Source of the DNA: Patescibacteria group bacterium
Lineage (GTDB): Bacteria; Patescibacteriota; Patescibacteriia; Patescibacteriales; XYC2-FULL-47-12
Direction: 5' to 3'
Assembly (NCBI GenBank): GCA_041652935.1
Contig: JBAZGH010000001.1
Coordinates: 7,393-71,392 of the forward strand
Length of the DNA stretch: 64,000 nucleotides
The notes beneath the pieces were generated by a model, which saw only the letters and a list, made by a program, of their open reading frames with translations, was not told the DNA's origin and searched no databases. Shown one piece after another: positions 26,186-52,952 of this stretch. A program made the translations under genes and the position numbers. The first letter of the stretch is position 1; each line of letters opens with the position of its first letter.

Positions 26186-26187
26186 GT

Positions 26188-26266: not shown

Positions 26267-26271
26267 ACACT

Positions 26272-31761: not shown

Positions 31762-33573
31762 TTGTCAATTTTTATGGATAAAAAGTGGATTATAAAGGAA
31801 AAACAGGAATACACTAAAAACAATCCGGGATTGCACCCGGTTATTTTTCGATTACTGGCAAATCGCGGTTTTAGCGTTGATGAAATAGAGAAATTTTTAA
31901 AGCTGGATTACAAGGAAAATTTACATGATCCATTCTTATTTAAAAATATGAAAGCAGCGGTAGAATTGATTTTTAAGCACATGAAGAATGGAAGCAGAAT
32001 TATAATATACGGAGATTATGACGCTGACGGTGTTACAGCCACGGCGGTTATGCAGAAGACATTGGAATTTTTAGGATGCAAGAATTTAGATATTTACATT
32101 CCCCACCGCGAAAGCGAGGGATACGGCATAAATAAAAGCGCGGTAGAGGAAATTGCCAAAAGCGGCGCTAGTTTAATTATCACAGTTGATACCGGCATTA
32201 GAAGCATCGGCGAGGTTGCGCTAGCTAAAGAAAAGGGAATGGACGTTGTTTTAACCGACCATCATGAATGCGGCGAACAGGTTCCCGATTGCTTGATTAT
32301 TAATCCAAAAGTTAACGGCGAAAAATATCCATTCAGGGATTTGGCCGGAGTTGGCGTGGCGTTTAAAGTGTCGCAGGCGTTGTTGTACGCACGCGAAAAC
32401 CATGCGCAACATAACGCAAAACAACGCGAAAAAGAGGGATTTGAAAAGTGGCTATTGGATTTAGTAGCCATAGGCACCATTGCTGATTTAATGCCATTAG
32501 TTAATGAGAATAGAGTTTTGGTGAATTATGGATTAGTCGTATTGAATAAGACGCAGAGAATCGGCATTAAAAAATTAATGGAAACCGCGCAAAGCGATAC
32601 TGATAAAAATGGAAATAAGCGGGAAGTTGACGCTTGGCAAATTGGTTATCAATTAGCCCCTCGCTTAAATGCGGCTGGTCGGCTTGGGCGCGCAAATACG
32701 GCCTACGAATTACTTATTACTGAAGATAAACAAGAAGCAACAGAAATAGCCCATAAATTAGACAATACGAATAAAGAACGCCAAAATATTACACAAGAAA
32801 TTTTTGAGCAGGCAGAGCAAGAGATTAATAAGAAAAACAAAATTTTATTTGCTGTTTATAATGGAGAGCAAAAGAACGCCTGGTCTTCAGGAGTGATGGG
32901 TTTGGTGGCTGGAAAATTAACAGAAAAATATTACCGGCCATCGTTGGCGATTACAAGCAAAATTGGCAATGATGGGTTGGAAATTGTCGGGAGCGCCAGA
33001 AGTATTGCTGAATTTAACATTACATCCATGCTGGAGGAATGCGGTGAATTATTATCGCATTACGGCGGGCACAAACAGGCGGCCGGATTCACCATAAAGC
33101 CGGGAAAATTAGATGAGTTTTTAGCCAAAGCAAAAAAAATTACTGAACATGAATTAAAAGATGTTGAATTAATCCCCGCCCTAGAAATTGATTTAGAGAT
33201 AAATTTTAATGACGTGTCTGAAGATTTATATGAAGCATTGCAAAAATTAAGGCCCTTCGGAGTTAAAAATGCCCAACCAAAATTTGTTAGCAAAAATTTA
33301 AAAGTGATAAATGCAGTTAAGATGGGGAATGAACAACAACATCTCAAGTTACAAGTTACAAGTTACAAGTCACAAAAATTAAGCGCAGTTGGTTTTAGCG
33401 TATTGGAAGAATGGAAAAAAATAAAAATTGGAGACGAAATTGATTTAGTGTATTATATAGATATGAACGAATGGAACGGGAGGAGGGAAGTTCAGTTGAA
33501 GATTATAGACCTAAAAAATAATTCAAATATTCAAATGAATTCAAATACCTCAAATACAAATAATTCGAATTAA
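31762..33573 (+). CDS. recJ: Single-stranded-DNA-specific exonuclease RecJ
   Basis: 603 aa. DHH motifs (IIIYGDYDADGVTA, DHH) and DHHA1 are present. The C-terminal tail is N/S-rich low-complexity sequence encoded by TTCAAAT repeats. Confidence 0.8.
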   Translation: MSIFMDKKWIIKEKQEYTKNNPGLHPVIFRLLANRGFSVDEIEKFLKLDYKENLHDPFLFKNMKAAVELIFKHMKNGSRIIIYGDYDADGVTATAVMQKTLEFLGCKNLDIYIPHRESEGYGINKSAVEEIAKSGASLIITVDTGIRSIGEVALAKEKGMDVVLTDHHECGEQVPDCLIINPKVNGEKYPFRDLAGVGVAFKVSQALLYARENHAQHNAKQREKEGFEKWLLDLVAIGTIADLMPLVNENRVLVNYGLVVLNKTQRIGIKKLMETAQSDTDKNGNKREVDAWQIGYQLAPRLNAAGRLGRANTAYELLITEDKQEATEIAHKLDNTNKERQNITQEIFEQAEQEINKKNKILFAVYNGEQKNAWSSGVMGLVAGKLTEKYYRPSLAITSKIGNDGLEIVGSARSIAEFNITSMLEECGELLSHYGGHKQAAGFTIKPGKLDEFLAKAKKITEHELKDVELIPALEIDLEINFNDVSEDLYEALQKLRPFGVKNAQPKFVSKNLKVINAVKMGNEQQHLKLQVTSYKSQKLSAVGFSVLEEWKKIKIGDEIDLVYYIDMNEWNGRREVQLKIIDLKNNSNIQMNSNTSNTNNSN

Positions 33574-33576
33574 TTT

Positions 33577-33975
33577 ATGCAAGATAAAGTGGTTCATAGA
33601 GAATTATCATATAAAATTACAGGTTTATTATTTAAAGTTCATACTGAGTTGGGGCATTATCGCAATGAAAAACAGTACGCTGATTATTTTGAAAAATTAT
33701 TGCAATTATATAATATTGAATATGTTAGAGAATATAGATTTTTAGATCAACAATATGGAAAGGAACAAGTAAGATGTGTTGCGGATTTCATTATTAATGA
33801 TAAGGTGCTTTTAGAGTTTAAATCTAGAAATTTTTTAACTAAAGACGATTATTACCAGGTTAGAAGATATTTAATAACTCTGAATTTACAATTAGGTATT
33901 TTGATAAATTTTAAACAATATAGGCTATCACCAAAACGTATTTTAAATAGTGATTTTTTGAGAAATAAATTTTAA
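33577..33975 (+). CDS. GxxExxY-family protein (PD-(D/E)XK-like)
   Basis: 132 aa. The G..E..Y pattern appears in ELGHYRNEKQYADY, with a D..E.K-like core. Confidence 0.5.
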   Translation: MQDKVVHRELSYKITGLLFKVHTELGHYRNEKQYADYFEKLLQLYNIEYVREYRFLDQQYGKEQVRCVADFIINDKVLLEFKSRNFLTKDDYYQVRRYLITLNLQLGILINFKQYRLSPKRILNSDFLRNKF

Positions 33976-34037
33976 TTTAATTTTTTATTTGAATTATTTG
34001 ATTTGAATAATTTGAATTTAAGTTCGTAATTCGAATT

Positions 34038-34445: not shown

Positions 34446-34470
34446 CCATGAAAATAATTCAACCATTATT

Positions 34471-34527
34471 TAACGATAATTGTACAATAATTAATTATCG
34501 TTAAATTATTGTACAATTATCGTTAAA
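34471..34527. promoter_or_regulatory. Composite perfect palindrome TTAACGATAATTGTACAATAAT / ATTATTGTACAATTATCGTTAA, with an additional direct repeat AATTATCGTTAA
   Basis: Read directly. The arms are 22 bp and perfect, separated by 13 bp. The element lies between rnhA and the ftsB-like gene. Confidence 0.6.
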
Positions 34528-34544
34528 TATTTTATAATAAACCC

Positions 34545-38491: not shown

Positions 38492-38647
38492 CACGAAACT
38501 GCGAAAATATGCGAATATAACGAAAAAAAATTTTCACGAAAAATTTTTGTGGCATTCGCATTAATCTATAGAAATTTTAATCCGTATAATGAATTCGTGT
38601 TAATGGTTCGTTAACCTTTTTAAATAGCGCTAAGATAATTAAACATT

Positions 38648-39328
38648 ATGATAAGTTTTGAAAACGTCAGCAAGCATTACCCACCCAGCACAAAGGCGCT
38701 GGATGGCTTTAGCTTGGAAATTAAGCCGGGGGAATTCGTATCCATAGTCGGCCAGTCGGGAACCGGAAAAACCACTATGGTAAAATTATTAATCGGAGAA
38801 GAAAGGGCTACCAAAGGAAGAATCGCCATAGGCGATTGGGATATTACCAGAATCAAGCAGCGCGAGGTGCCTTATTTGCGCCGCCAAATAGGAGTTATTT
38901 TCCAGGATTTTAAATTGTTGCCGCAAAAAACCCTATTGGAAAATGTTGCGTTTGCCATGCAAGTTTGCGGGCATCCGCCAAGCGAAATAAGCGCTAAGGT
39001 GCCGCAAATTTTAAAATTAGTCGGGCTCGAGAGAAAGGGGCACCGCTATCCCCATGAAGTTTCCGGCGGAGAGCAGCAGCGGGTCGTTATCGCCCGTTCG
39101 CTGATACACCATCCGAAAATATTATTGGCTGATGAGCCGACTGGAAATTTAGATTCAATTAACGCGGCTGATATTATAAATTTACTGGAAAAAATAAATA
39201 AATTCGGCACTACGGTTATTTTAGTCACCCATAACAAAGAAATAGTAAACAGCTTGCGCCGCCGGGTAGTTACAATAGATGGCGGCCGAGTTATAAGTGA
39301 TCAAAAAGTAGGGAAGTATATCCTTTAA
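38648..39328 (+). CDS. ftsE: Cell division ATP-binding protein FtsE
   Basis: 226 aa. Walker A is GQSGTGKTT and the signature is VSGGEQQR. Confidence 0.8.
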   Translation: MISFENVSKHYPPSTKALDGFSLEIKPGEFVSIVGQSGTGKTTMVKLLIGEERATKGRIAIGDWDITRIKQREVPYLRRQIGVIFQDFKLLPQKTLLENVAFAMQVCGHPPSEISAKVPQILKLVGLERKGHRYPHEVSGGEQQRVVIARSLIHHPKILLADEPTGNLDSINAADIINLLEKINKFGTTVILVTHNKEIVNSLRRRVVTIDGGRVISDQKVGKYIL

Positions 39329-39467
39329 AAAATAATTCAAATCTATAAATTATATGCAAATACTACAATTAAATTATTTGCATCCATTTGTATACATATA
39401 AATTCGTGCAACATATTTGAATTAACGGTTTGACCTCCATGTAAATAAGTATAACTTAATTTGAACT

Positions 39468-40385
39468 ATGATTTTAATATCATTATCAAGAATTTTAAAA
39501 TTTGCCGTCCAGGACTTTATCCGCAATTTTTGGATTTCCATTGTGACGGTTACTATTTTAATTTTGTCCTTGTTTTCAATAAATTTTTTAATTGTAGCCG
39601 GAGTTATCAGCGAAGCCGCTATTAAAACTGTTGAACAGAAAATTGATTTAAGTTTGTATTTATCTCCAGCAGCGGCCGAGGAAGACATTAGCGCGCTAAA
39701 GAAGGAATTGGAAAATTTAGACGGAGTTGCCGAGGTTGAATACATATCAAAAACGCAGGCGCTGGAAGCTTTCCAGCAGAAGCATAAAGACAATGCCGAA
39801 GTGCAGGATGCATTAAGGGAAATAGGGGATAATCCGCTGAACCCAAGTTTTGTTGTGCAGGCAAAACTTTTATCTGATTATGAGGCAATAATTAATTCGC
39901 TTGATAAATTAAGCAAGCACACGATAATAGAAAGCAGGAATTTTGACAACCATAAAATTCTGCTAGAGAGCATGAGCAATATTACCGTTAAAACCAGGCA
40001 GGCGGGGATGCTTATCAGTTTTATTTTTGTAGTAATTACCATACTAGTCGTTTTTAACGCCATTAGAATCGCCATCTATACCCATAAAAAAGAAATTAGG
40101 ATAATGAAACTGGTTGGGGCAAGCGATTGGTTTATACGCGCCCCATTTTTGGTTGAGGGCATAATATATGCTTTTATCGGAGTTATTTGCATAATTGCAT
40201 TGTTTTACCCATTTATCCATCTGTTGCAGCCGTATTTAACTACTTTCTTTAACGCCAACGATTTAAATTTATTGGATTATTTTAATAGTAATTTTATCTT
40301 AATTTTTGGCTCTCAATTTTTAGTTGCTGGATTAATTAATATAATCGCCAGCTTATGGGCGATGAGAAATCATTTAAGAGTTTAA
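39468..40385 (+). CDS. ftsX: Cell division permease FtsX
   Basis: 305 aa. It has a transmembrane segment, a periplasmic domain and three transmembrane helices. It follows ftsE. Confidence 0.75.
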   Translation: MILISLSRILKFAVQDFIRNFWISIVTVTILILSLFSINFLIVAGVISEAAIKTVEQKIDLSLYLSPAAAEEDISALKKELENLDGVAEVEYISKTQALEAFQQKHKDNAEVQDALREIGDNPLNPSFVVQAKLLSDYEAIINSLDKLSKHTIIESRNFDNHKILLESMSNITVKTRQAGMLISFIFVVITILVVFNAIRIAIYTHKKEIRIMKLVGASDWFIRAPFLVEGIIYAFIGVICIIALFYPFIHLLQPYLTTFFNANDLNLLDYFNSNFILIFGSQFLVAGLINIIASLWAMRNHLRV

Positions 40386-40402
40386 TAATAAAATATTATT
40401 TT

Positions 40403-41383
40403 ATGAAATACGATTTAGTTTCAATTGGAGGCGCGGTAGAAGATATAACTTTTTATCCTGATAACGCTATTTTAGTTGATAATAAGCAGGATATCCTAAG
40501 GCAGAAACTGCTTGCTTTTGAATATGGGGCAAAGATAAGGGTTAAAGAGGCGCATTCAACCTTCGGCGGCGGCGCGGCTAATGTTTCAGTTTCAGCCAGA
40601 AGTTTAGGGCTTAAGTCCGCCTGCGTTTGCGCGGTCGGAGATGATTATCGGGGAAAATCAATAATAAAAAATTTAAAAGAGAAGAAAGTTGATGTTAAAT
40701 TTATCCAAAGAATAAAAGGCGATATGAGCGGTTTTTCTTTTTTATTAGTTGGTCCGGGAAATGAACACGTAATTTTTTCCCATCGGGCGGCTAATTCAAA
40801 AATGGAAGTTTCTAATAATATTTTAAAAAAAATCAACAGCCGATGGCTTTACATAACATCACTGTCTGGAGAATGGCATCCGATTCTAAATAATATATTC
40901 AAGCACCACAACCGGTTTAAAATCGCCTGGAATCCCGGCTACATCCAGCTGACCGAAGGCATCGGTTTAATGAAAAAGTTTTTAAAATATACCGAAGTCA
41001 TAAATTTAAACGAAGATGAGGCAATTGAATTCGTGGCGTCCTGCCGCAAAGCCATGAAGGGGCGGGACCAAAGCCGGAAATTTTTAAGCAACGTTAAGAA
41101 TTTATTGGAAGTGATAAAAAGCTATGGGCCGAGTATTGTAATGATAACTAGGGGGAGAAAGGGAGCGGATGCTTATGACGGAAAAAATTTCTATCACATA
41201 AATATAAAAAAAGAAGCCAGGCGGGTTGATACTACTGGAGTCGGAGACGCTTTTGGCTCAGCTTTTGTGTCCGGGCTGGAAATTTATGGGGAAGACATAG
41301 AAAGAGCGATGGATCTTGGAATAAGAAATTCCGCCTCGGTTATAGCGGAAAAGGGGGCGCAGAATGGATTGTTAAAGTTGTAA
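40403..41383 (+). CDS. PfkB-family carbohydrate/ribokinase-like kinase
   Basis: MKYDLVSIGGAVEDI matches the N-terminal GG motif, and DTTGVGDAF the C-terminal motif. The start is moved from 40355 to 40403 to avoid overlap with ftsX. Confidence 0.65.
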   Translation: MKYDLVSIGGAVEDITFYPDNAILVDNKQDILRQKLLAFEYGAKIRVKEAHSTFGGGAANVSVSARSLGLKSACVCAVGDDYRGKSIIKNLKEKKVDVKFIQRIKGDMSGFSFLLVGPGNEHVIFSHRAANSKMEVSNNILKKINSRWLYITSLSGEWHPILNNIFKHHNRFKIAWNPGYIQLTEGIGLMKKFLKYTEVINLNEDEAIEFVASCRKAMKGRDQSRKFLSNVKNLLEVIKSYGPSIVMITRGRKGADAYDGKNFYHINIKKEARRVDTTGVGDAFGSAFVSGLEIYGEDIERAMDLGIRNSASVIAEKGAQNGLLKL

Positions 41384-41385
41384 AT

Positions 41386-41955
41386 ATGAAAATAAAAATA
41401 GAAGTATCAGGGAGGCATATTCATTTATCAAGCAATGATTTAAATAAGTTATTTGGCAGTGATTATGAATTACAAAAATTGCGTGATTTATCACAGCCAG
41501 GAGAATTTGCCTGTGAAGAAAAAGTTTTATTGCGTAACGGCAATAATGAAATAGCGGTTAGAATTATTGGTCCGGCGCGAGGCATTACTCAAATTGAAAT
41601 TTCGCAAAAAGACGCTGCAGAATTAAATATAAATCCACCCCGCAGAATGTCGGGGGATTTACGCGGCAGCGCGGGTATAAAAATTATTGGACCAAAAGAT
41701 GGGGTTGATTTAATAAAGGGCGTAATTTTATCCCAAAGGCATATTCATTTAGATAAGGGATCAGCTAAAAAATTAAATTTAAGTGATAACCAAAAAGTTG
41801 ATGTGCGAGTTGATAATCAAAAAAGTTATGTATTTAAGGATGTTTTAGTGCGGGTGGGAGAAAAATATAAGCCAGCCCTGCATATTGATACCGATGATGC
41901 CGTAGAAGCTGATATAAAAAGAGGAGAAGTAACGGGGGGCACAATATTGCAATAA
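41386..41955 (+). CDS. PduL-type phosphate acyltransferase (phosphotransacetylase-like)
   Basis: 189 aa. Two PduL repeats each carry an RHIHL motif (VSGRHIHLS and SQRHIHLD). Confidence 0.55.
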   Translation: MKIKIEVSGRHIHLSSNDLNKLFGSDYELQKLRDLSQPGEFACEEKVLLRNGNNEIAVRIIGPARGITQIEISQKDAAELNINPPRRMSGDLRGSAGIKIIGPKDGVDLIKGVILSQRHIHLDKGSAKKLNLSDNQKVDVRVDNQKSYVFKDVLVRVGEKYKPALHIDTDDAVEADIKRGEVTGGTILQ

Positions 41956-41987
41956 TCAATTTTTTATGTTAAATTATATTACTAATT

Positions 41988-42014
41988 AAGCTGGTTTATT
42001 TACCAGCTTTTTTA
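41988..42014 (+). terminator. Rho-independent terminator
   Basis: The stem AAGCTGGT/ACCAGCTT with loop TTATTT is followed by TTTTT. Confidence 0.7.
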
Positions 42015-42038
42015 CTCCTACAAACCTACAAATACAAC

Positions 42039-42710
42039 ATGACTGTTTATATAATAATTCCAACATATAATGAAGAGAAAAGCATCAGAGCGGTTATTAA
42101 AGACATAAAAAATAGTTTCAATGAAGCCAGGATTATTATCGTTGATGATGCATCTGATGACCAGACGGTTGCCTTTGCACAAAATTTACCTATTGCCATA
42201 ATTTTACAACACGCTGTAAACAGGGGGCAGGGAGCGGCTTTAAAAACCGGTACCGAATGCGCTATAATAGAGGGAGCGGATATTATTGTACATTTTGACG
42301 CTGACGGGCAGTTTTTGGCTGATGAAATTAAAGATATGACAGCGCCCATAGTTAATGGGCAAGCAGATATTGTTTTTGGCTCGCGTTTCCTAGATAAAAA
42401 ATCAAGCATGCCATGGTTGAAAAAAAATATAATAATGCCCTTAGCGCGCTTAATTAATAAAATATTTTTTAATGTTCAATTATCTGATCCGCAGGCCGGC
42501 TTCCGCGCTTTTTCGCGAGAAGCTTATAAAAAAATAGAATGGCAACAGGATAGGATGGCGCACTGTTCGGAAATTATGCGCAATGCTTTCAAAAATAAAT
42601 TACGAATAAAAGAAGTTCCAATAACTGTGATCTATAAAGATTTCGGCCAAAAATTTTCCGGAGGATTTAGAATTTTAAAAGATATGTTTATTGGGAGGTT
42701 TACACGATAA
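42039..42710 (+). CDS. Family 2 glycosyltransferase (polyprenyl-phosphate sugar synthase-like)
   Basis: 223 aa. It has VYIIIPTYNEEKSI and a D.D motif. Confidence 0.75.
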   Translation: MTVYIIIPTYNEEKSIRAVIKDIKNSFNEARIIIVDDASDDQTVAFAQNLPIAIILQHAVNRGQGAALKTGTECAIIEGADIIVHFDADGQFLADEIKDMTAPIVNGQADIVFGSRFLDKKSSMPWLKKNIIMPLARLINKIFFNVQLSDPQAGFRAFSREAYKKIEWQQDRMAHCSEIMRNAFKNKLRIKEVPITVIYKDFGQKFSGGFRILKDMFIGRFTR

Positions 42711-42872
42711 CGCCCTCACCCCTAACCCCTCTCCCAAAGGGAGAGGGGGAAAATGTCAATTTAACTTTATTTATAATTTTATTAAATAATATAAAATAAA
42801 TAAACTCCAAAATTATTTCTGTTATGACGAGAGGGAACTCCCTCTCCTCGTGGGAGAGGGTTGGGGTGAGGG
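42711..42872. mobile_element. MITE-like element of 162 bp with imperfect GC-rich terminal inverted repeats and an AT-rich core
   Basis: The left end CCCTCACCCCTAACCCCTCTCCC-AAA-GGGAGAGGGGG and the right end CCCTCTCC-TCGTG-GGAGAGGG-TTGGGGTGAGGG are reverse complements of each other. Each contains a local hairpin. Confidence 0.6.
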
Positions 42873-42877
42873 AATAT

Positions 42878-43213
42878 ATGTTCACTCAACAAATCATCGG
42901 TCTGATAATTATCGCTTATTTTTTAATCAGACTTTACTTACAGAAAAAACAAAAACAAATTAACGCTAATGAATTTTATTTTTGGTTAATTTTTTGGATA
43001 ATAGCCGGAGCGGCTGTTTTGCTTTTAAAGCAGATTGATTTGTTGGTTCGTAATTTAGGATTTACCGCTTCCGGAATTGACGTATTATTATATTTAGCGG
43101 TGGTCACGCTATTTTATTTTGTATTCCGCTTGCGCATTCGAATGGCGAGAATAGAACATAATATTACAAGGGTTGTGAGGGAAATGGCTATTAAAAACAA
43201 GAATTATGAATAA
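42878..43213 (+). CDS. Small membrane protein (DUF2304-like) located between two GT2 genes
   Basis: The ORF track starts at 42824, inside the repeat. An internal ATG at 42878 (MFTQQIIGL...) gives a 111-aa protein with three transmembrane segments. Confidence 0.5.
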   Translation: MFTQQIIGLIIIAYFLIRLYLQKKQKQINANEFYFWLIFWIIAGAAVLLLKQIDLLVRNLGFTASGIDVLLYLAVVTLFYFVFRLRIRMARIEHNITRVVREMAIKNKNYE

Positions 43214-43219
43214 GGAATT

Positions 43220-44281
43220 ATGAATCAGGCATTGAAAATAGGAATAATAATTGTTAACTATAAGGATTATGCCCAGCGGTTCTTATATGATTGCATAGAG
43301 ACCTTACGCAAACAGGAAGGAGAAAATTTAGATTGTCAATTATATATAATTGACAATTCTTCATCTGAAGAAACAAGAGAATATTTAAAAAAACAGGCGC
43401 CGGAGGCAAAGATTATTCCGCGCTCGGACGGAAATTATAGCGCGGCTAATGGGGCGGGAATTGAACAAGCGGGGCAGAATGGCTGTGAATATTTTGTTAT
43501 AGTCAATATGGATGTTGTTTTTAATAAAAATTGGCTAAGTGAATTAGTAAAAGCAGTTAACAGCGATGAACAAGTTGGGATAGCACAATCAAAAGTGATG
43601 CTATGGCCGGAAAAAGATAAAATAAATAGCGTTGGCAATGTTATTAATTTTTTAGGATTTGGGTTTACTCAAGGATATAGAGAAAAAAATAAAGAAATTG
43701 AAGAAATTGAAGAAATTAAGGGTTATGCATCTGGCTGTTCAATGATAATTAAGCTAGAGGTGATAGAGAAAATAGGTAATTATGACTCAGAGTATTATAT
43801 GTATCATGATGATGTAGAATTGGGCTGGCGGACTAAATTAGCTGGTTACAAAATTGTTTTAGCGCCAAAATCAGTTGTTTATCATAAATATGAATTTAGT
43901 CGCTCAGTTCGTATGCTGTACTATATGGAGCGTAACCGCTATATAGCTATTCTCTCTTTTTATAAATTGCCAACAATTTTATTAGTTTTGCCACCGTTAG
44001 TTATTATGGATTTAGGCATGTTGGCCTATTCAATAATTAACGGCTGGTTTGGCACAAAATTAAAAGTTTATTTATATTTTTTACAGCCAAAAAATTGGCA
44101 GCATATTTTTCAGGTGCGTCAGCAAGTTAAAAAATTTCGACAAGTTTCTGATCGTGTTATAATTAAAAATATTGCCGGTATAATTGATCATCAGGAAATA
44201 ATGAATCCAGTGTTGAAATATATAGTTAATCCAGTATTTAATTTATATTGGAAATTTATAAGGGTGTTTATTGTTTGGTAA
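43220..44281 (+). CDS. Family 2 glycosyltransferase
   Basis: 353 aa. It has IGIIIVNYKD, a DXD-like motif (HDDVE) and a C-terminal transmembrane region. Confidence 0.75.
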   Translation: MNQALKIGIIIVNYKDYAQRFLYDCIETLRKQEGENLDCQLYIIDNSSSEETREYLKKQAPEAKIIPRSDGNYSAANGAGIEQAGQNGCEYFVIVNMDVVFNKNWLSELVKAVNSDEQVGIAQSKVMLWPEKDKINSVGNVINFLGFGFTQGYREKNKEIEEIEEIKGYASGCSMIIKLEVIEKIGNYDSEYYMYHDDVELGWRTKLAGYKIVLAPKSVVYHKYEFSRSVRMLYYMERNRYIAILSFYKLPTILLVLPPLVIMDLGMLAYSIINGWFGTKLKVYLYFLQPKNWQHIFQVRQQVKKFRQVSDRVIIKNIAGIIDHQEIMNPVLKYIVNPVFNLYWKFIRVFIVW

Positions 44282-44284
44282 ATC

Positions 44285-44393
44285 ATCATTTGTCATTCTG
44301 AGCGAAGCGAAGAATCTGTTTGCGTGAATAAGAAAATATTATAAATCCTTCGTCGTTTCGCTAACACTCCACTTCTCAGGATGACAAAAAGAG
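44285..44393. repeat. Imperfect inverted repeat of about 110 nt (TTTGTCATTCTGAGCGAAGCGAAG ... CTTCGTCGTTTCGC..CTCAGGATGACAAA) that embeds the start codon of the next gene
   Basis: Read directly. It shares the GTCATT(C/T)TGAG motif with the hairpin at 63772-63810. Confidence 0.5.
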
Positions 44394-44809
44394 ACATTAT
44401 GCTTAAATTTTTAAAACTATTATTAATATTTTCCTGGATGCTGATGATATTTATTAGTTCGCATATTTCTGCTCCGCCGGAAGATTTAACATATCAAAAA
44501 AAACTAATTGATTATACTTATGATAAAAGCATGCACTTGATTTTATACGGCATGCTGGCTTGGCTAATTGTTTATTTTTTGCGCGAGTTTAAAATAAAAT
44601 ACCGCTATATTTTCTATATCGCGGTTATTACAGCTTATTTATATGGTATTACCGACGAATGGCATCAAAGTTTTGTGCCGGGCAGGGGAGTGAGCTATTG
44701 GGATCTTGTTTTTAATGTTATCGGCGCAATGTTCGGCTTTATTGTTTATCGCCTATGGCACGTAGTTAAATATAAGCGTGGTTGGCATGCTAAGCATTTA
44801 CATGAATGA
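44381..44809 (+). CDS. VanZ-like family membrane protein
   Basis: 142 aa. YDKSMHLILYGMLAWL and ITDEWHQSFVPGRGVSYWDLVFNVIGA match the conserved VanZ motifs. Confidence 0.55.
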   Translation: MTKRDIMLKFLKLLLIFSWMLMIFISSHISAPPEDLTYQKKLIDYTYDKSMHLILYGMLAWLIVYFLREFKIKYRYIFYIAVITAYLYGITDEWHQSFVPGRGVSYWDLVFNVIGAMFGFIVYRLWHVVKYKRGWHAKHLHE

Positions 44810-44894
44810 AATTTTTTTGAGATTTTGTCAATATGTGGCTAAAAATAGTCAATATGATATACTAAAAATGACTATAATTTTAAATTAATTTTTT

Positions 44895-45938
44895 ATGAAT
44901 ATAGAACAATATTTCAAAATAGCCATTGAAAAAGGAGCGGCTGACCTGCATTTGGTCGGCGGGTCGGTTTCAACATTAAGAATAGGCGAACAATTAATTC
45001 CCATTAGCGAGGAACCGTTAGACAATAAAGAACTTCAGGGGGCGGCTTTGGGGTTATTAGATGAAAATCAAAAAAATCATTTTTTAGAAAAAAAAGAGTT
45101 GGATTTCGGCAAAGAAATTTTAGGCCAGCGCTTCAGGATAAATTTGCATTTTCAGGAAAGTAAAATTGGTTTAACGGCCAGAGTAATAGCAAAAAAGATT
45201 CCGGCCCCGGATAAGCTTGGTTTTACAGACATATTATACGGCCTAACGCATTTGCGCGACGGGCTTATTTTAGTTGTGGGGACTTCCGGTAGCGGAAAAA
45301 GCTCGACTTTAGCGGCTATGATAGATATTATAAACACCGAGCGCAAGGCGCACATTATAACAATTGAAGACCCGATTGAATATATGTTCCGGGAAAAGCA
45401 GAGCATTATTGAGCAGCGGGAGCTGGGAGTAGACACGAAATCTTTTGCTGACGCTTTAAAATCAGCTTTGCGGCAGGACCCGAATGTTATTATGGTGGGT
45501 GAAATGCGGGATCAGGAAACAATCGCCGGCGCTTTAACAGCGGCCGAAACAGGACATTTGGTTATATCCACCCTACACACCTCAAACGCTCCGGAAACAA
45601 TCCAGCGCATAGTTGACTCTTATCCGGCTGATAAAAGAAACCAAATTTTAAATCAGCTGGCATCTAATTTGCGGGCGGTTATTGCTCAAGAATTACTACC
45701 AACCAAAGAAGGCGGGCGAGTGGCGGTTCGTGAAATAATGATAAATAATTCCGCAATTGCCAATTTAATAAAAAATAATGATATGGCGCAGATATTATCC
45801 GCTATCCAGACCGGCGGGGGAGACGGCATGACAACCATGAACCAGTCAATTGATAAGTTATTAGCCGCTGGTATTATTGACCAAAAGGTAGCTGAAAACA
45901 GAAAAAGGGATTTAGAGACAAAGTCAGTTTACTATTAA
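44895..45938 (+). CDS. pilT: Type IV pilus retraction ATPase PilT
   Basis: 347 aa. Walker A is GTSGSGKSS, followed by Asp-box and His-box motifs. The length is typical of PilT. Confidence 0.75.
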   Translation: MNIEQYFKIAIEKGAADLHLVGGSVSTLRIGEQLIPISEEPLDNKELQGAALGLLDENQKNHFLEKKELDFGKEILGQRFRINLHFQESKIGLTARVIAKKIPAPDKLGFTDILYGLTHLRDGLILVVGTSGSGKSSTLAAMIDIINTERKAHIITIEDPIEYMFREKQSIIEQRELGVDTKSFADALKSALRQDPNVIMVGEMRDQETIAGALTAAETGHLVISTLHTSNAPETIQRIVDSYPADKRNQILNQLASNLRAVIAQELLPTKEGGRVAVREIMINNSAIANLIKNNDMAQILSAIQTGGGDGMTTMNQSIDKLLAAGIIDQKVAENRKRDLETKSVYY

Positions 45939-46040
45939 AAATATAATGCAAATCCTCAAATTTATTCAAATGCTTCAAATGATTTTTATGCGAATATTAT
46001 ATTTGTGGCTATTTGGGGCATTTGCATTTAATTTGTAGAT

Positions 46041-46391
46041 TTGAATTATATTATGCAAATAGAAAAATGGGAAAACATCAAAGGAATGATAAAAGACCAG
46101 TTTGAAGTTGAAGACGAGGGCAAGGAGGAATTGGAGGACGCTCCGAATAGTACCATGGAATTTATTATTTTTAATGGGCCGCTAGGCAAAATAAAGCTGG
46201 AATACATCGTTAAACCGGTGGTGCTGGATAAAAAAACAATCGGTTCTCGTCGAATCGGTTCGGAAACCACAGTGGAGTATATTTACAGCGATGATGAATT
46301 TTCCAATACTTTCAAAGCTTATAAATGGGATGATGACCGAGATGATTGGGTGGAAATGGAAAGGGAGAGGGCAAGCGCGTTTATGGCGTAA
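46041..46391 (+). CDS. Hypothetical acidic protein
   Basis: 116 aa. No recognisable family. Confidence 0.35.
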   Translation: MNYIMQIEKWENIKGMIKDQFEVEDEGKEELEDAPNSTMEFIIFNGPLGKIKLEYIVKPVVLDKKTIGSRRIGSETTVEYIYSDDEFSNTFKAYKWDDDRDDWVEMERERASAFMA

Positions 46392-46441
46392 TTCATAAAA
46401 AATTAAACAGAAATTTAACAATAATTAAACAATAATTTTTT

Positions 46442-46885
46442 ATGAGAGCAGTAGTACAAAGGGTAAAAGAATCCAGAGCTAAAATAGACGAGGAAATTAT
46501 TGGAGAAATTAATCAAGGGTTGCTAGTCCTGTTAGCAGTCCATAAAGACGACACGGAAAAAGATATAGTGTGGATGGCGAAAAAGATAGCGCAGTTGCGG
46601 ATATTTGGTGATGAAGATTGTAAAATGAATAAATCCGTAAAAGACACTGGCGGAGAGATTCTTATTGTTTCACAGTTTACATTATACGGCGACTGTGGAA
46701 GAGGAAATAGGCCAAGTTTCATTACCAGCGCCCGGCCGGAAAAGGCAAAAGAGTTTTATGAAAAATTTTTGGAACAAATCCGTTCTGCCGGCATCAAAGT
46801 TGCCACCGGAAAATTTCAGGAACATATGGAATTGGAATTAATAAATGACGGACCGACCACGATAATTATTGACAGCCATCAGTAG
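46442..46885 (+). CDS. dtd: D-aminoacyl-tRNA deacylase
   Basis: 147 aa. It has MRAVVQRV...GLLVLL...SQFTLYGD...GNRPSF. Confidence 0.85.
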
Positions 46886-46908
46886 AGACGTGGCACTGCC
46901 ACGTCTCT
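46884..46908 (+). terminator. Perfect 10-bp stem-loop overlapping the dtd stop codon. No T-tract follows.
   Basis: AGAGACGTGG-cactg-CCACGTCTCT. Confidence 0.35.
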
Positions 46909-46946
46909 GTAGTTAGATAATATAATAAAAAAGACACCAAATTTTT

Positions 46947-47384
46947 ATGTTTAAAGTCGGAGCATTTGCTATTATTTTTGACAAAGATGGGAAGGTGCTA
47001 TTATGCCACCGTCTCGATTACGATCTATGGAATTTGCCCGGAGGCGGTCTGAATGATAAAGAATCTCCGTGGGAGGCGGTAATTAGGGAAACAAAAGAAG
47101 AGACAGGGCTGGATGTTGAAATTGAAAAGTTAGTTGGTATTTATAGCAAGAATAACAAAAATGACATAGTTTTTTCTTTTAAGTGCAAAGTTATCGGGGG
47201 AGAAATCGCATTATCGGATGAGGCGGATGAAATTGAATATTTTGATATTAACAGTCTGCCTAAAAATACAGTCCCCAAACAGGTTGTTAGAATAAAAGAT
47301 GCCTTTGCGGATAAAAAAGAAGTAATTCTAAAAATACAGGGCGGACCGGAGGCCATTGAATTAGTAAAGCAAGGAAAATTATAA
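46947..47384 (+). CDS. NUDIX hydrolase
   Basis: 145 aa. The Nudix box is GGGLNDKESPWEAVIRETKEETG. Confidence 0.8.
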   Translation: MFKVGAFAIIFDKDGKVLLCHRLDYDLWNLPGGGLNDKESPWEAVIRETKEETGLDVEIEKLVGIYSKNNKNDIVFSFKCKVIGGEIALSDEADEIEYFDINSLPKNTVPKQVVRIKDAFADKKEVILKIQGGPEAIELVKQGKL

Positions 47385-47464
47385 TTTAATTCATTAAGGA
47401 GGATAAAAAGTTGCGGGTTGCAGGTCTTAGAACCTAAGTCTTACAACTTACAACCTATAAACGT

Positions 47465-48214
47465 ATGGACATTTTATCAATCGCTATCGCAGTCATTATT
47501 ATTGCGATTATCGTTTTGCGCCAGGTTAACCAGTACGAGCGGGGTGTTATGTTTACTTTGGGAAAATTTACCGGCGTTGCCGAGCCGGGCTGGCGCGTTG
47601 TTATACCTATTTTTCAGTTTATGAAAAAAGTAGATATGCGCGTTAAGGCGGTTGACGTGCCGGACCAAAAAGCAATCACTCGCGACAATATTTCCGTAAC
47701 TGTTAACGCGGTAATTTATTATAAAGTAGCTGATGCATCAAAAGCGGTAATCGCTGTGGAAGATTTCCGTTACGCAATTTCACAATTGGCGCAGACTACG
47801 ATGCGCAATATTGTCGGCGAGATTAGTTTGGATGAGTTATTGGCGGAAAGGGAAAAAACATCAGAACGCATCCGCGATATTGTTGATAAAGTTTCCGACG
47901 CCTGGGGCATTAAAGTGGAAAACGTGGAATTGAAAGATGTCAGCTTGCCGGCGGACATGGAGCGCACGATTGCCAAACAGGCCGAGGCTGAACGGGAAAA
48001 AAGAGCGGTTATAATTAAAGCCGAAGGCGAGGTGGCGGCGGCGGAAAATATGGCAAAAGCAGCCGGTATTTTATCAGGATCAACGGGCGCCCTGCATTTG
48101 CGCACCCTGCAATCAATTAATGACTTAAGCTCCGATCAATCTAACACGGTAATTTTCGCTTTACCGGTAGAAATACTGCGCGCGTTTGAATCATTCACTA
48201 AGAAAAATACTTAA
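47465..48214 (+). CDS. SPFH/band-7 (stomatin/prohibitin-like) membrane protein
   Basis: 249 aa. It has an N-terminal transmembrane segment, an SPFH core and the EAEREK coiled coil. Confidence 0.75.
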   Translation: MDILSIAIAVIIIAIIVLRQVNQYERGVMFTLGKFTGVAEPGWRVVIPIFQFMKKVDMRVKAVDVPDQKAITRDNISVTVNAVIYYKVADASKAVIAVEDFRYAISQLAQTTMRNIVGEISLDELLAEREKTSERIRDIVDKVSDAWGIKVENVELKDVSLPADMERTIAKQAEAEREKRAVIIKAEGEVAAAENMAKAAGILSGSTGALHLRTLQSINDLSSDQSNTVIFALPVEILRAFESFTKKNT

Positions 48215-48223
48215 ATAAAATTT

Positions 48224-48616
48224 ATGCTTAATAAAAAAGGAGGAACAATTTTTTATCTGCTTTTTATAATCGCAGCCATTTTAATTGTTGGTTTGATAAT
48301 TTTTTATTATAGCCAAAAAGACGATGTCGGTGATAATATGGCGGAAACGCAAGTTGATTTAACCCAGTTAGCTGAAAATTACAAGAACAAGGTCAAAGAT
48401 ATTATGCCGGCGTATAAAGAGGCGATAGAGGGTATTAATCAGGAAAAATTAGAAGAACTGCGCGTCCAGTTGCTCTCATTGAAAATGCCGTCAGAATTCA
48501 AAGATTTGCACGTTGAACTTATTTTGCTTTTGGACAAGCTAGAGCAAAATTATTCATCCGAAGAAGCGCAAAAAAAGTTAGAAGAAATAATATCCCAATA
48601 TAATTGGCTTAAATAA
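48224..48616 (+). CDS. Hypothetical membrane-anchored protein
   Basis: 130 aa with an N-terminal transmembrane segment. Confidence 0.35.
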   Translation: MLNKKGGTIFYLLFIIAAILIVGLIIFYYSQKDDVGDNMAETQVDLTQLAENYKNKVKDIMPAYKEAIEGINQEKLEELRVQLLSLKMPSEFKDLHVELILLLDKLEQNYSSEEAQKKLEEIISQYNWLK

Positions 48617-48626
48617 ACGCAGCAAT

Positions 48627-49385
48627 ATGCTTAACCGCCACACACCATTAATTATCTCGATTATATTATTTTTCGGCTGGGAAATAATTGTTTTTTTTCC
48701 AAAAAATTTTTTAATTGCCGCAGCGGTTGTTATAATTTTGCCAACCATTTTATTATTAAGATTAAATAAATTTAATTTTAAGAGCGGTGATTTTTGGCTG
48801 CTGGCATCTCCCTGCCTGTTTTTAATATTATCGGCCAGTTTGTTTTTTCTTTTTCTTAACTATCCAGCGGTAAAGCATTCTGTGATTATAATTTTAACCG
48901 TAATCAGTTATTATTTCATATCTTATCTTTATTATTTTTTATGCCGGATAACAAAGTACACACCCCTTAGCTTGGAAAGCTCTTCCTCTTATTTTAATAT
49001 AATCAGTTTTTTATTTCTAAGCACCTCTTTCTATGGCTTTATAAATTTACTGAATTTAAAGATGTGGTACTTGGCGGTAATTTTAACAGCGGCGGTTTTT
49101 ATCTTAACTTACCAGTTTTTTTGGATTAATAAGGTCGGCGAGCGTAATAATTTATTAATTTCAACATTAGTTTCCATTTTGATGGCTGAATTTTTTTGGT
49201 CAATTTCCTTTCTGCCGATTTCCCACTTTATCAGCGGTCTGTCCCTTGCTATAATATACTATGTGTTAATAAATATACTGCTTTTGCATTTTTTAGAAAA
49301 ATTTGATAAAAAGACTGTAATAAAGTATTTTATCATCGGGCTATCCTGCATTTTTATTATATTATTGTCAGCTCGCTGGCTATAG
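48627..49385 (+). CDS. Hypothetical polytopic membrane protein
   Basis: 252 aa with 6-7 hydrophobic helices. Confidence 0.4.
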   Translation: MLNRHTPLIISIILFFGWEIIVFFPKNFLIAAAVVIILPTILLLRLNKFNFKSGDFWLLASPCLFLILSASLFFLFLNYPAVKHSVIIILTVISYYFISYLYYFLCRITKYTPLSLESSSSYFNIISFLFLSTSFYGFINLLNLKMWYLAVILTAAVFILTYQFFWINKVGERNNLLISTLVSILMAEFFWSISFLPISHFISGLSLAIIYYVLINILLLHFLEKFDKKTVIKYFIIGLSCIFIILLSARWL

Positions 49386-49426
49386 TTCAAAATCTTTATA
49401 CGTACTAAATACTACGTCAAACCATT

Positions 49427-49565
49427 AATTCGAATGCTTTGTACGGATTTATGCGGACACAGATGAATGCGAATGCTGCGAATTCAGTACAAACATTATT
49501 TTATTAATATTTGAGGCATTCGCATTCATCTGGGTCGTTTGAGATAAGTACAACGAATTCGAATT
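49427..49565. repeat. Nested inverted repeat. The inner 17-bp perfect inverted repeat is CAGATGAATGCGAATGC (49460-49476) / GCATTCGCATTCATCTG (49516-49532). The outer arms are AATTCGAATGCTTTGTAC / GTACAACGAATTCGAATT.
   Basis: Read directly. The core is AT-rich. Confidence 0.65.
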
Positions 49566-49610
49566 AAGGGATTGTAGAACATTTTAGTCCGCACTAATAA
49601 ACTTCTATAT

Positions 49611-50723
49611 ATGTCTAGAAATTACAAAATTACAATTTTAATAATAACAATAATAGTAAGCTTGGCAGGCGGCGTGATAGGCGGAATTATCTTCCGTTCC
49701 TATTTAATTAACTCTTCTTTCGGGATACCTCTCTGGGGAGATATTAATTTAAGCGATAATTATCAGCAAGGACAAATTGTTATCAGCCAGCCGAAAAAAG
49801 TGATTGTCGAGCAAAATGACAGGATTGCCGAAGTCGCTTCCGGAGCAATAAGGAATAAAGTAAGTTTTTACATAAAAAAACAGCCGGTTTTAAGCAACCA
49901 AGGCGGCGTTTTTAATATTAAAGAGTATTATCTTCCTGGAGATAAGGCGGGGGAGGGGTTAGTGCTTACGAATGACGGATGGGCGGTAACAGCGGTAAAA
50001 GTCAGCAAGCCCTTAAGTTATATCGCGGTTGACAGTGAAAAAGATATTATCGCCATAGAGCGGAGTTATTTTGACGAAGTAAGCGGATATTATTTCGTTA
50101 AATTAAACGCCTCTGATTTATCGGTAGCTCAGTTTACGGAGCCGGAAAGCATGAGGATAGGCCAGTTGGCAGTTGCTTTTTCAGAGGGGGGGATAAAAAC
50201 AGCTTATATTGAAAAAATAAATTATTATCCTGATTACAACTTGGTAAAATCAAGTGAAAATGATTTTAGTTATCTTAAAATAAGCGAAGAAAATTTAGCG
50301 TTGGGCGATATTTGTTTCGGCCTTGACGGCTCCGCGGTCGGCTTATACGCAAAAGAAGAGGCATTAATGCCCATAAATTATTTTAAGAAATTATTGCCCA
50401 ATTTATTAAATAAGGGTGAAATAACACGTTCTTATTTGGGAATAAATTATATTTTATTAGACGAATTAACGGGAGAAGAAAAATTAAGCGGTGCAATAAT
50501 TGCCAAAGATTCTATAGGAGTTTCCATAGAAAAGAAAAGCCCGGCAGAAGCTGCCGGATTGCTTGAGGGAGATATAATTTTGGAGATTGAAGGCAGAAAA
50601 ATCAGCGAAACAAATAATTTAAGCGATATAATACTGGGATATAAAACGGGAGAAGAAATTGAGATAAAAATTGAGCGCAGGGGAGAAGAGCGGCAAATTA
50701 AGGTGGTTTTAGGGGGGCAATAG
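49611..50723 (+). CDS. Membrane-anchored PDZ-domain protein (HtrA-like, with no visible catalytic serine motif)
   Basis: 370 aa. It has an N-terminal transmembrane segment and a C-terminal PDZ domain (GAIIAKDSIGVSIEKKSPAEAAGLLEGDIILEI). No GDSGGP motif is present. Confidence 0.5.
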   Translation: MSRNYKITILIITIIVSLAGGVIGGIIFRSYLINSSFGIPLWGDINLSDNYQQGQIVISQPKKVIVEQNDRIAEVASGAIRNKVSFYIKKQPVLSNQGGVFNIKEYYLPGDKAGEGLVLTNDGWAVTAVKVSKPLSYIAVDSEKDIIAIERSYFDEVSGYYFVKLNASDLSVAQFTEPESMRIGQLAVAFSEGGIKTAYIEKINYYPDYNLVKSSENDFSYLKISEENLALGDICFGLDGSAVGLYAKEEALMPINYFKKLLPNLLNKGEITRSYLGINYILLDELTGEEKLSGAIIAKDSIGVSIEKKSPAEAAGLLEGDIILEIEGRKISETNNLSDIILGYKTGEEIEIKIERRGEERQIKVVLGGQ

Positions 50724-52863: not shown

Positions 52864-52952
52864 TAAAAAGTTGAAAGTTATAAAATTAAAAGCCTGCCTG
52901 TTGGCAGACGGGCTAATATACAAATATAAAATATATAAATAAAGGAGGACAT

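Follow-up and report, generated by a model that had tools for sequence, protein, structure and literature searches.

A 64,000-nucleotide stretch of DNA from a Patescibacteria group bacterium (contig JBAZGH010000001.1, positions 7,393 to 71,392; hereafter the window) carries ATGCRAAT/ATTYGCAT dyads in the spacers upstream of ftsE, of ftsX, of a gene for a PDZ protein and of a small gene that begins at 46053. These dyads form the conserved block nearest the centre in both arms of long, imperfect, AT-rich palindromes, and the four spacers are copies of one superfamily of palindromic intergenic repeats. The explanation that best accounts for the whole, and that we consider probable, is a repeat family comparable to miniature transposable elements with inverted repeats (MITEs) and to REPINs (hairpins of doublets of repetitive extragenic palindromic, REP, sequences), and related to cassettes that carry a gene of the GxxExxY (PDDEXK_3) family. 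An earlier note on this DNA had taken the dyads for operators of one DNA-binding protein, and had mentioned a small family of miniature inverted repeats as an alternative. It is the alternative that gained support, and it can be sharpened: the repeats exist in long and short forms, are patchily distributed among relatives and are associated with GxxExxY genes.

Palindromic elements in the window

The four spacers align with each other over 100-150 nt with scores 8-14 standard deviations (z) above shuffles. The spacers upstream of ftsE and of the PDZ gene align over ~150 nt down to the ATG (z 12.9), the ftsX-upstream spacer aligns over ~130 nt with the reverse complement of the PDZ-upstream spacer (z 14.5), and it also aligns with the reverse complement of the spacer upstream of 46053 (z 8.2). 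The long-form arm is ~106 nt and reads, from the centre outward, ATTyG-GGCATTCGCATTCATCT..TTTAAATCCGTACAA..ATTCGAATTAATGGTTTGAC..TTTAAATCCGTACAA..TTGAAC; the conserved blocks of the arm profile are ATTyG-GGCATTCG-AT, TTTAAATCCGTACAA (twice), ATTCG-ATTAATGGTTTG and the terminal TTGAAC. The short-form arm is ~36-45 nt, with the unit TAATTCRAATCCTCAAATkTATTCAAATrCTwCAAA, and consists of the inner block and the terminal block AATTTGTAGATTTGAATTATAT. Both of these blocks are common to the long and the short form, and the two forms are fused in the ftsX-upstream copy. Full elements measure 213-290 nt and are free of open reading frames (ORFs), with arms of ~30% G+C and outer ends (G)TTCAA...TTGAAC that lie 0-1 nt from the upstream stop codon and 1-4 nt from the downstream ATG. 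The related loci used for comparison have three sources: genomes scanned with FtsX (L001-L003), metagenomes scanned with PilT (L004-L083) and look-ups by exact protein (L104-L129). A search with the arm profile returned 23 matches, five in the window and 18 in relatives (L001, L014, L107/L108 and L109/L110), with E values of 1e-8 to 1e-27 and none inside genes. The coordinates of the elements are collected in Table 1.

Table 1. Palindromic elements and GxxExxY cassettes, in window coordinates; cassettes from related loci are identified by locus.
Feature	Position	Strand	Description
GxxExxY (PDDEXK_3) cassette	33518..34037	+	left repeat 33518-33573, gene 33577-33975, right inverted repeat 33979-34034
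ftsE-upstream copy	38492..38647	.	intact long right arm 38546-38647, up to ATG 38648
ftsE-ftsX spacer copy, chimera	39329..39467	.	short-form left arm 39329-39366, long-form right arm 39367-39467
Short-form palindrome	45939..46052	.	fills the spacer from the PilT-like stop (45936-45938) to ATG 46053
ATGCAAAT outside the element	46053..46060	+	start codon and codons 2-3 (M-Q-I) of a 112-aa gene
Full long-form element	49386..49610	.	fills the DUF5656-PDZ gene spacer, after TAG (49383-49385), up to ATG (49611)
Parts of the PDZ-upstream element	arms 49386-49483 (left) and 49509-49610 (right), loop 49484-49508	.	
Innermost 17-bp perfect inverted repeat	49460..49532	.	CAGATGAATGCGAATGC / GCATTCGCATTCATCTG; includes ATGCGAAT (49467) and ATTCGCAT (49518)
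Cassette repeats, L113			37 nt, 81% complementary
Cassette repeats, L117			42 nt, 95% complementary
Cassette repeats, L122			19 nt, 95% complementary
Cassette repeats, L124			17 nt, 100% complementary
Cassette repeats, L126			39 nt, 90% complementary
Cassette repeats, L128			71 nt, 86% complementary

The PDZ-upstream element is the full long form, and both its arms are recognised by nhmmer (left, 49483-49378 on the minus strand, E 3e-24; right, 49509-49617 on the plus strand, E 7e-23). The 17-bp perfect inverted repeat that the earlier note reported here is present (49460-49476 / 49516-49532) and is indeed nested in a larger palindrome, but the extent of the latter had been understated: the real arms are 49401-49483 and 49509-49591, 83 nt each and 72% complementary. 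The predicted fold is stable both as RNA (-70.1 kcal/mol, z -8.1) and as DNA (-43.6 kcal/mol, z -8.9). Upstream of ftsE, the right arm is intact (nhmmer 38546-38651, E 5.5e-18), the left part (38492-38545) is degenerate and made of CGAAA/CGAAT words, and the stability of a hairpin of the whole spacer is not significant (z -0.2). In the ftsX-upstream chimera the terminal 22-mer occupies 39330-39351, and the right arm (nhmmer 39376-39471, E 6.8e-16) ends at the ftsX ATG at 39468; positions 39332-39361 are identical at 28 of 30 positions to the reverse complement of 46020-46049. The palindrome upstream of 46053 has outer arms at 45940-45962 and 46030-46052, an inverted repeat with 87% complementarity, and holds the 36-nt family unit at 45944-45979. 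When up to three mismatches are allowed, this short-form sequence occurs only in spacers, those of L001, L006, L060, L062, L063 and L068.

Searches for known non-coding features did not account for the elements. At the Rfam gathering threshold only two tRNAs were called, and at E <= 1 over 38400-49700 only a sub-threshold chance match to a snoRNA. Intrinsic terminator criteria gave no terminator-like call at the four sites, where loops are 25-40 nt and no T-tract is present. Scans for sigma-70 promoters and terminators were too noisy in AT-rich DNA, and promoter-like strings are not relied on here; TTGAC..TAyAAT-like strings do lie near the outer arm ends, with an atypical spacing of 14 nt. 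A scan of viral contigs for GGCATTCGCATTNATCT returned 20 matches, about the number expected by chance, none of which fits the arm profile.

The strings that the earlier note had quoted were all found, at most 1-2 nt from where it had placed them, and its assignments of ftsE, ftsX and the PDZ protein gene are correct; genes for a D-Ala-D-Ala carboxypeptidase (Dac) and a PilT-like ATPase lie nearby. Upstream of ftsE, ATGCGAAT (38509-38516) and ATTCGCAT (38554-38561) are separated by 37 nt. Upstream of ftsX, TATATGCAAATA (39351-39362) is followed after 12 nt by TATTTGCAT (39375-39383), with half-sites ATGCAAAT at 39354 and ATTTGCAT at 39376. The spacer 3' of the PilT-like gene holds ATGCAAAT at 45946, ATGCGAAT at 45988, GCATTTGCAT at 46018-46027 and ATTTGCAT at 46020. 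A further ATGCAAAT, at 46053, had been counted as a site and is actually the start of the downstream gene; the ORF start had been set at TTG 46041, and the real one is ATG 46053, since the N-terminus that follows (MQIEKW in the window, MQ[IL]EKW in general) is conserved in relatives, including those without an element upstream.

Across the window as a whole ATGCRAAT is not enriched, with 13 matches observed against 14.65 +/- 3.9 expected. The outcome that the earlier note had named as fatal to its claim, namely a motif placed at random or equally often inside genes, was checked, and we found a strong intergenic bias instead: nine of the 13 matches are wholly intergenic, in the 4,575 nt (7.1%) of the window that lie between genes (binomial P = 2.7e-8). 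Spacer-wise shuffling gives 0.45 +/- 0.67 matches, and none of 2000 shuffles reached nine. The 7-mer most enriched in the intergenic DNA of the window is TGCGAAT/ATTCGCA, with six intergenic copies (in three spacers) against two in all coding DNA. All four spacers hold ATGCRAAT in both orientations, as inverted pairs. These instances are not independent of each other, because they sit in the arms of palindromes and in copies of one repeat family.

A chance likeness of low-complexity, AT-rich spacers generated by replication slippage, with ATGCRAAT arising independently in four of them, is extremely unlikely. Such an origin would suit the significant 7-8-nt periodicity of 33 of 54 hairpin arms (2% in coding controls), the word classes CAAAT, AAAGT and TTGTT, each found in 11-13 of 321 spacers where ~1 is expected, and the fact that words differ between spacers. 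However, convergence of words cannot yield arms of 90-106 nt that align with E values of 1e-16 to 1e-27, or identities of 33/36 and 28/30 between unrelated loci, and the motif count in shuffled spacers falls far short of the nine copies observed.

Very improbable, too, is the proposal that one dimeric transcription factor binds the dyads before ftsE, ftsX, the PDZ gene and the 46053 gene and thereby governs a cell-envelope and division regulon. It is true that the motif is ~20-fold over-represented in spacers, always as inverted pairs, that ftsEX, the PDZ protein and the adjacent D-Ala-D-Ala carboxypeptidase are related in function, and that old copies retain conserved blocks, which could reflect protein binding. 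Yet the half-sites are 37, 14, 24 and 43 nt apart in the four spacers, so that the conservation of spacing, which the note had offered as a check, yields no fixed value. Nor is the similarity that of one site: it spans 100-150 nt and continues as far as the start codons. Where a long right arm is present (three copies), the ATTYGCAT end does lie ~78-87 nt before the ATG (~100 nt from the inner end of the arm), but this near-constant distance follows from homology that extends down to the ATG. The same arms adjoin the stop codons of unrelated genes and stand upstream of pilT, pfkB and others in relatives; the sites are missing in the closest syntenic genome, L104, and the ftsE/ftsX upstream regions of L002 and L003 are without the motif. 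In other genomes the inner block reads ATTTGGAT or ATTCGGAT, and the 8-mer ATGCRAAT is therefore a local variant. No candidate for a cognate DNA-binding protein was identified. Since operators would be absent in the sister genome, and since the alignable blocks reach 100-200 nt, we reject the regulon reading. Fur boxes or CodY boxes, TIGR-Tas arrays and DNA uptake sequences were dropped on sequence, as the words differ between spacers and there is no fixed unit.

Presence and absence in relatives, and the hairpin structure

The closest named relatives of the window genome are Candidatus Falkowbacteria. L104 is the nearest locus for every protein compared (Dac 82%, FtsE 94%, FtsX 85%, PilT 92%, DUF5656 76%, PDZ 68%), followed by L107 and L005, then L001, then L109/L110 (PilT 78%), and all of these are syntenic with the part of the window from 33 to 52 kb. 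Attempts to recover the flanks of the window via its end genes returned short Logan fragments only. Where the window has spacers of 156, 139, 114 and 225 nt, L104 has 6 nt between Dac and ftsE, an ATGA overlap (-4) between ftsE and ftsX, 6 nt between PilT and the next gene, and, between DUF5656 and PDZ, a 77-nt hairpin of TTAGAA-type words that is unrelated to the window element. L107 and L005 have spacers of 8-12 nt at two of the junctions.

Occupancy changes from junction to junction. The window and L109 each have a copy between Dac and ftsE; at this place L107 retains 12 nt of the terminus (CTTGAACATT), L001 has a related hairpin and L104 has nothing. Between ftsE and ftsX the window has its copy and L109/L110 only a right arm; between ftsX and pfkB only L109/L110 are occupied, by a left arm alone. 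Upstream of pilT copies are found in L107 and in L109/L110. Downstream of pilT, L110 has the long form, and the window and L006 have the short one; L109 carries a GxxExxY cassette here, of which L001 shows just the left repeat and no gene, and L004 has a different element (GTCATTCTGAGCGAAGCGAAGAATC). The junction is empty (6-8 nt) in L104, L107 and L005, as in many others. Upstream of the PDZ gene, the full element of the window is represented by a left arm only in L001 and by other hairpins in L104 and L005.

Turnover can be seen even at short distances. The coding DNA of the window and L004 is ~85-88% identical, yet all three spacers that they share are unrelated. The two L110 elements that flank pilT have right arms 93% identical, against a family mean of 63%, and are the product of recent copying. 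L109, whose PilT protein is identical to that of L110, lacks the downstream copy, a polymorphism at strain level. As in MITEs, there is presence or absence at orthologous sites together with copies at non-orthologous ones, and the copies are dispersed, alignable and non-coding, with inverted ends and, when full, a length inside the MITE range of 100-400 bp.

How the two arms of an element relate to each other was examined in an alignment of five full elements, the consensus fold of which has 44 pairs, with 88.6% of the cells paired. Eleven pairs are changed on both sides, against 5.8 +/- 1.6 after shuffling (0 of 500 shuffles reach 11) and 0-2 in slid registers, and this co-variation is concentrated in the inner helix that holds the ATGCRAAT motif. 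Such two-sided changes indicate that the arms of an element co-evolve, which could reflect selection on a hairpin or a cruciform, or the mode of copying. Over their full length, the arms within one element are no more alike than arms of different elements (0.62 vs 0.63).

These observations bear on the idea that the elements are immobile RNA hairpins with a function for the host that evolve in place, be it as terminators, RNase III sites, 3'-end stabilisers or translational-coupling devices, and owe their similarity to common constraints and local duplication. We regard it as unlikely. Hairpins with z >= 3 are more frequent in co-directional (39%) and convergent (50%) spacers than in divergent ones (18%; 292 spacers in total), hence commoner where a spacer has a gene 3' end, but the convergent cases are mostly classical terminators with a GC stem and a T-tract and not these elements, and none of the four copies in the window has a T-tract or a terminator-like call. 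The hairpins usually take up the spacer between stop and start (73% of it in the median), co-variation links the arms of full elements, and the hairpin upstream of a Band7 gene is retained in four genomes with G.U/A-U exchanges. Against this, the closest relatives manage without the elements, near-identical copies occur at different loci, the same 22-36-nt sequences appear at non-orthologous junctions of distant genomes, and one-armed copies, which are unable to fold as a hairpin, keep their high similarity all the same.

GxxExxY cassettes and the proposed mechanism

The window also contains a GxxExxY gene bracketed by inverted repeats (Table 1). Its product matches Pfam PDDEXK_3 (E 2.5e-20, 73.4 bits for a cut-off of 22) and TIGR04256 (67.3 bits for a cut-off of 35). 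The repeats of this cassette are made of TTCAAAT/TTCGAAT words, the same vocabulary as that of the dyad elements, and by manual count the left one agrees with the 36-nt family unit in 30 positions out of 36. In L109 the GxxExxY gene downstream of pilT lies between AATGCGAA-containing repeats, the 38-nt inverted repeats AATGCGAAACTGCAAATTTTAATGCGAACTTACGAACT (33 of 38 positions matched), which are flush with the pilT stop and the next ATG. The inverted-repeat scores of the gene flanks are 21.0 in the window and 25.5 in L109, where 142 control small genes have a mean of 8.2, a standard deviation of 2.1 and a maximum of 20.5. The set was then enlarged by six GxxExxY genes with identities of 54-73%, situated on unrelated contigs among unrelated neighbours, and inverted repeats of this vocabulary bracket all eight genes examined.

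Several sequences tie these cassettes to the gene-less palindromes. The left arm of the L128 cassette holds TATGCGAATACCACGAAT (with ATGCGAAT) and its right arm ATTCGTGGTATTCGCATA (with ATTCGCAT), which is the original dyad. The 17-mer at the L124 flank, ATTCAAATGCTTCAAAT, recurs without change at window positions 45964-45980. When a flank of the L117 gene served as seed, an iterated profile found GxxExxY flanks only, plus the gene-less copy of the window and that of L006; window positions 45944-45979 match the unit profile with E 3.9e-8 and are identical at 33 of 36 positions to the L122 GxxExxY flank. Elements with and without the gene also align with each other over the last 45 nt ahead of the ATG. 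The partnership between gene-less palindromes and GxxExxY genes is well supported as an association. On two occasions a repeat is also read as coding sequence: the left repeat of the window cassette encodes the C-terminal tail of the ORF at 31762-33573, and in L117 the last ~15 codons of the GxxExxY gene (1884-1928) are a copy of the repeat unit.

The protein itself looks like an active nuclease, to go by its sequence and its model. D70, E80 and K82 are invariant in 34 homologues, and the AlphaFold model (pLDDT 90.4) has as its nearest solved folds Cas4 SSO0001, the Cas4-family ACE1, lambda exonuclease and the nuclease domains of AddB/AdnA. A PDB sequence search found no relative, and searches with PADLOC and PHROGs gave marginal matches only. 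In a 2012 survey of the PD-(D/E)xK superfamily, PF13366 is listed as of unknown function with multiple transfers (PMC3424549). No insertion-sequence transposase was seen in the related loci. The sharing of repeats in eight of eight cassettes is what an autonomous element would have, but GxxExxY is no known transposase.

The gene-less palindromes are probably non-autonomous relatives of the GxxExxY cassettes, comparable to MITEs or REPINs, that spread into, and vanish from, the very short junctions of compact genomes; for their mobilisation or maintenance, the GxxExxY nuclease is the best enzyme candidate. That this nuclease drives the repeats, in the manner of the REPIN transposase, is a tentative proposal, made by analogy, which we hold to be possible rather than likely. 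In operons whose genes abut or overlap, only flush insertions may be tolerated. A co-transcribed full copy would form a long hairpin with the upstream stop and the downstream start at the base of its stem, and by analogy with the ERIC and Correia repeats of other bacteria the likely effects would be on mRNA processing, mRNA stability or translational coupling (PMC10969869, PMC2649163).

A number of points weigh against the view of a mobile, GxxExxY-related repeat family. Insertion was never directly observed, and ancient insertion followed by differential loss could give much of the pattern; the 12-nt remnant in L107 means that losses do occur, so that part of the pattern is old insertion with differential loss, or homogenisation. 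The flanks of filled and empty sites (TA|G..., ...C|AT(T)ATG) give no consistent target-site duplication. Arms at orthologous junctions do not resemble each other more closely than paralogous arms do (0.55-0.75 vs a mean of 0.63), and turnover, gene conversion or selection on blocks is therefore needed. With regard to structure, selection at the RNA level is not clearly indicated by the G.U and A.C mismatches of long stems (36 vs 34), the asymmetry of G.T over A.C being weak overall (101 vs 65) and 12 vs 7 cells within the family. Two of the four window copies, upstream of ftsE and of ftsX, are not significantly stable hairpins, and any hairpin function is therefore not general. The link to GxxExxY is associative (n = 8); the palindromes could have been there first, with the gene homing into them as a passenger. 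The profile of the long-form arm has no match at the four further GxxExxY loci to which it was applied (L113, L117, L122 and L124), and what connects the long form with the cassettes is therefore the shared blocks, the ftsX-upstream chimera and the repeats of L109 and L128. Finally, the sample is small, with ~1 Mb of related loci in which genes were called by a simple ORF rule.

The wider spacer population and known repeat systems

Hairpins of tandem 7-8-nt words are common across the 321 spacers of the related loci. Of 54 arms, 33 are significantly periodic; lag identity is 0.50 for a shift of 7 nt and 0.46 for one of 8 nt, where shuffling gives 0.36, and the word classes are diverse (CAAAT, AAAGT, TTGTT, GAAAATT and others). 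The ATGCRAAT family belongs to this wider set of palindromes with a fast turnover. A second dispersed hairpin family, TTGTCATTCTGAGCGAAGCGAAGAATCT...CTTCTCAGGATGAC, lies upstream of a VanZ gene in the window (44290-44380) and, at a non-orthologous site, downstream of pilT in L004 (~1765-1835; PilT 95% identical); it also occurs at 63770-63810 of the window and in L001 (14400-14430), L107 (2400-2540), L013 (1491-1686), L020 (2856-3055) and L073 (6589-6739). Strings like GTCATTyyGAGsg..GCG..GnATC are found in many loci. Two closely similar hairpins of AAAGTTn words (24404-24496, z -6.0, and 26186-26271, z -4.2) lie on either side of the two genes in 24497-26185, one for a BNR/sortilin-like protein and the other a 184-aa ORF; the same word class recurs at 52864-52890 and in L004, L005, L011, L014, L016 and L020. 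A 26-bp perfect palindrome (TATTTAACGATAATTGTACAATAATT and its complement, 34467-34529; spacer z -8.3) precedes the DivIC-like gene 34545-34985, and the orthologous spacer of L104 has just 23 nt. In the Falkowbacteria metagenome-assembled genome L001, two spacers (9200-9250 and 12740-12800) hold the GC-rich repeat TTATCCAG[CT]ACCGTGCCCGAATACCCTGCGGTC, another dispersed element. The ftsE-ftsX spacer of L003, a Buchananbacteria contig, contains a small gene for a four-helix bundle (1768-2142), which by eye resembles the '23S rRNA intervening sequence protein' and is flanked by a GC hairpin and tandem TCTAATAT words, a further case of a small gene within a junction palindrome.

Some features of the window are of a different nature. 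Upstream of the Band7/SPFH gene, a perfect Shine-Dalgarno sequence (AAGGAGGA, 47396-47403) is followed by a hairpin (47410-47454) and then by the ATG at 47465. This arrangement is kept in four genomes (window, L005, L001 and L007), with G.U/A-U exchanges in the 5' arm, and may represent a split ribosome-binding site or a tiny upstream ORF. Enolase is present as two overlapping ORFs, 52953-53678 for the N domain and 53474-54223 for the C domain, where L104 has one gene of 422 aa; the window gene is frameshifted, a pseudogene or wrongly assembled. A structured leader (63003-63197, z -4.2) with a terminator-like GC stem and T-tract stands before the gene for L10 (63198-63722), which is followed by that for L7/L12, and is probably an autoregulatory element of the L10-leader type; Rfam made no call for it at the gathering threshold. 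The 627-nt non-coding region 59508-60134, after the minus-strand gene 58644-59507, contains the direct repeat TTATACCTTTGTTTTTGCTT twice, several hairpins of GTTnTAA words and a very AT-rich stretch at 59800-60000. Positions 1-20000 have a G+C content of 27-33%, against 35-46% elsewhere, almost no spacers, no ATGCRAAT, and genes of the sialic-acid/nonulosonate type (NeuB, a CMP-transferase and others in the gene table of L111); they may be an acquired glycosylation island.

A full-text search of one literature library, which is no proof, returned no paper that links MITE-like or palindromic repeats with Patescibacteria, and the phylum goes unmentioned in a review of prokaryotic MITEs from 2024. 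Elements of this kind are already known, from MITEs, ERIC and REPINs; what is new is the family, the host lineage, the placement between stop and start and, most of all, the link with a gene of the PD-(D/E)xK type whose function is unknown. For annotation this means that recurring intergenic motifs such as ATGCRAAT in Patescibacteria (the Candidate Phyla Radiation, CPR) should not be read as regulons. The repeats separate genes that would otherwise overlap, such as ftsE and ftsX, and so probably alter operon expression; assembly breaks are a further consequence to be kept in mind. The bracketing of GxxExxY genes offers a concrete hypothesis for the role of TIGR04256/PF13366, a widespread family, and suggests a possible second partnership of repeat and enzyme of the REPIN type, with a different enzyme. 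If this is true, there would be a class of mobile elements run by a minimal Cas4-like nuclease instead of a transposase, and the flush stop/start geometry would be the arrangement tolerated by operons that are compact and translationally coupled.

Comparison with known repeats helps to place the family. ERIC (enterobacterial repetitive intergenic consensus, also intergenic repeat unit, IRU) is an imperfect palindrome of ~127 bp (PMC10969869, PMC2229807, PMC3184786). Like the elements described here, ERIC is palindromic over its whole length, lies in transcribed intergenic DNA and also within operons, varies between strains in copy number and occupancy, has long and short variants, and forms an RNA hairpin expected to affect the fate of the mRNA. 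Unlike ERIC, our elements belong to another phylum, show no sequence relationship to it and are placed exactly from stop to start in very compact operons. The Correia elements (CREE) of Neisseria carry outward promoters at their ends, and cleavage of their hairpins by RNase III is documented (PMC2649163, PMC10969869). They are likewise MITE-like, 100-150 bp long and gene-adjacent, with inverted ends, variants of different length and polymorphism between strains; two defining features of CREE, the duplicated TA target and the IHF site, were not found in our elements.

Repeats of short words are a second point of reference. The cyanobacterial short tandemly repeated repetitive (STRR) sequences, said to have been described by Mazel in 1990, are reportedly intergenic tandem repeats of heptamers. 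Intergenic TAACTGA repeats are known from Beggiatoaceae, Cyanobacteria and Bacteroidetes (PMC4679880). In both, as here, tandem words of 7-8 nt lie a few nt from start codons, and the downstream genes have no common function; those are direct arrays of one heptamer, whereas here the words vary, there are two inverted arms and the units are alignable over 40-106 nt. AT-rich palindromic microsatellites or hairpin elements of Fusarium and Lobosphaera mitochondria (PMC7218506, PMC4524435) are also intergenic, optional between close relatives and associated with indels. These are organellar, come without a nuclease gene and have no sequence relationship to the elements of the window.

The closest parallel for the proposed partnership is that of REPINs with their transposase. 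In this system, which Nunvar in 2010 and Bertels & Rainey in 2011 are said to have described, hairpins of REP doublets reportedly accompany a single-copy gene for a REP-associated tyrosine transposase (RAYT) that is flanked by REPs of its own. The candidate enzyme here is a PD-(D/E)xK nuclease with a Cas4-like fold, in contrast to the HUH/Y1 transposase of the REPIN-RAYT system. The arms also differ, being 36-106 nt and AT-rich where REPs and bacterial interspersed mosaic elements (BIMEs) are 20-40 nt and GC-rich, and they lack the GTAG/CGTC head (for the REP superfamilies, see PMC3733652). What the two have in common is a set of short palindromic repeats, dispersed over many junctions and patchily distributed among relatives, together with a small enzyme gene bracketed by inverted copies of the repeat, the gene-less copies far outnumbering those that carry the gene.

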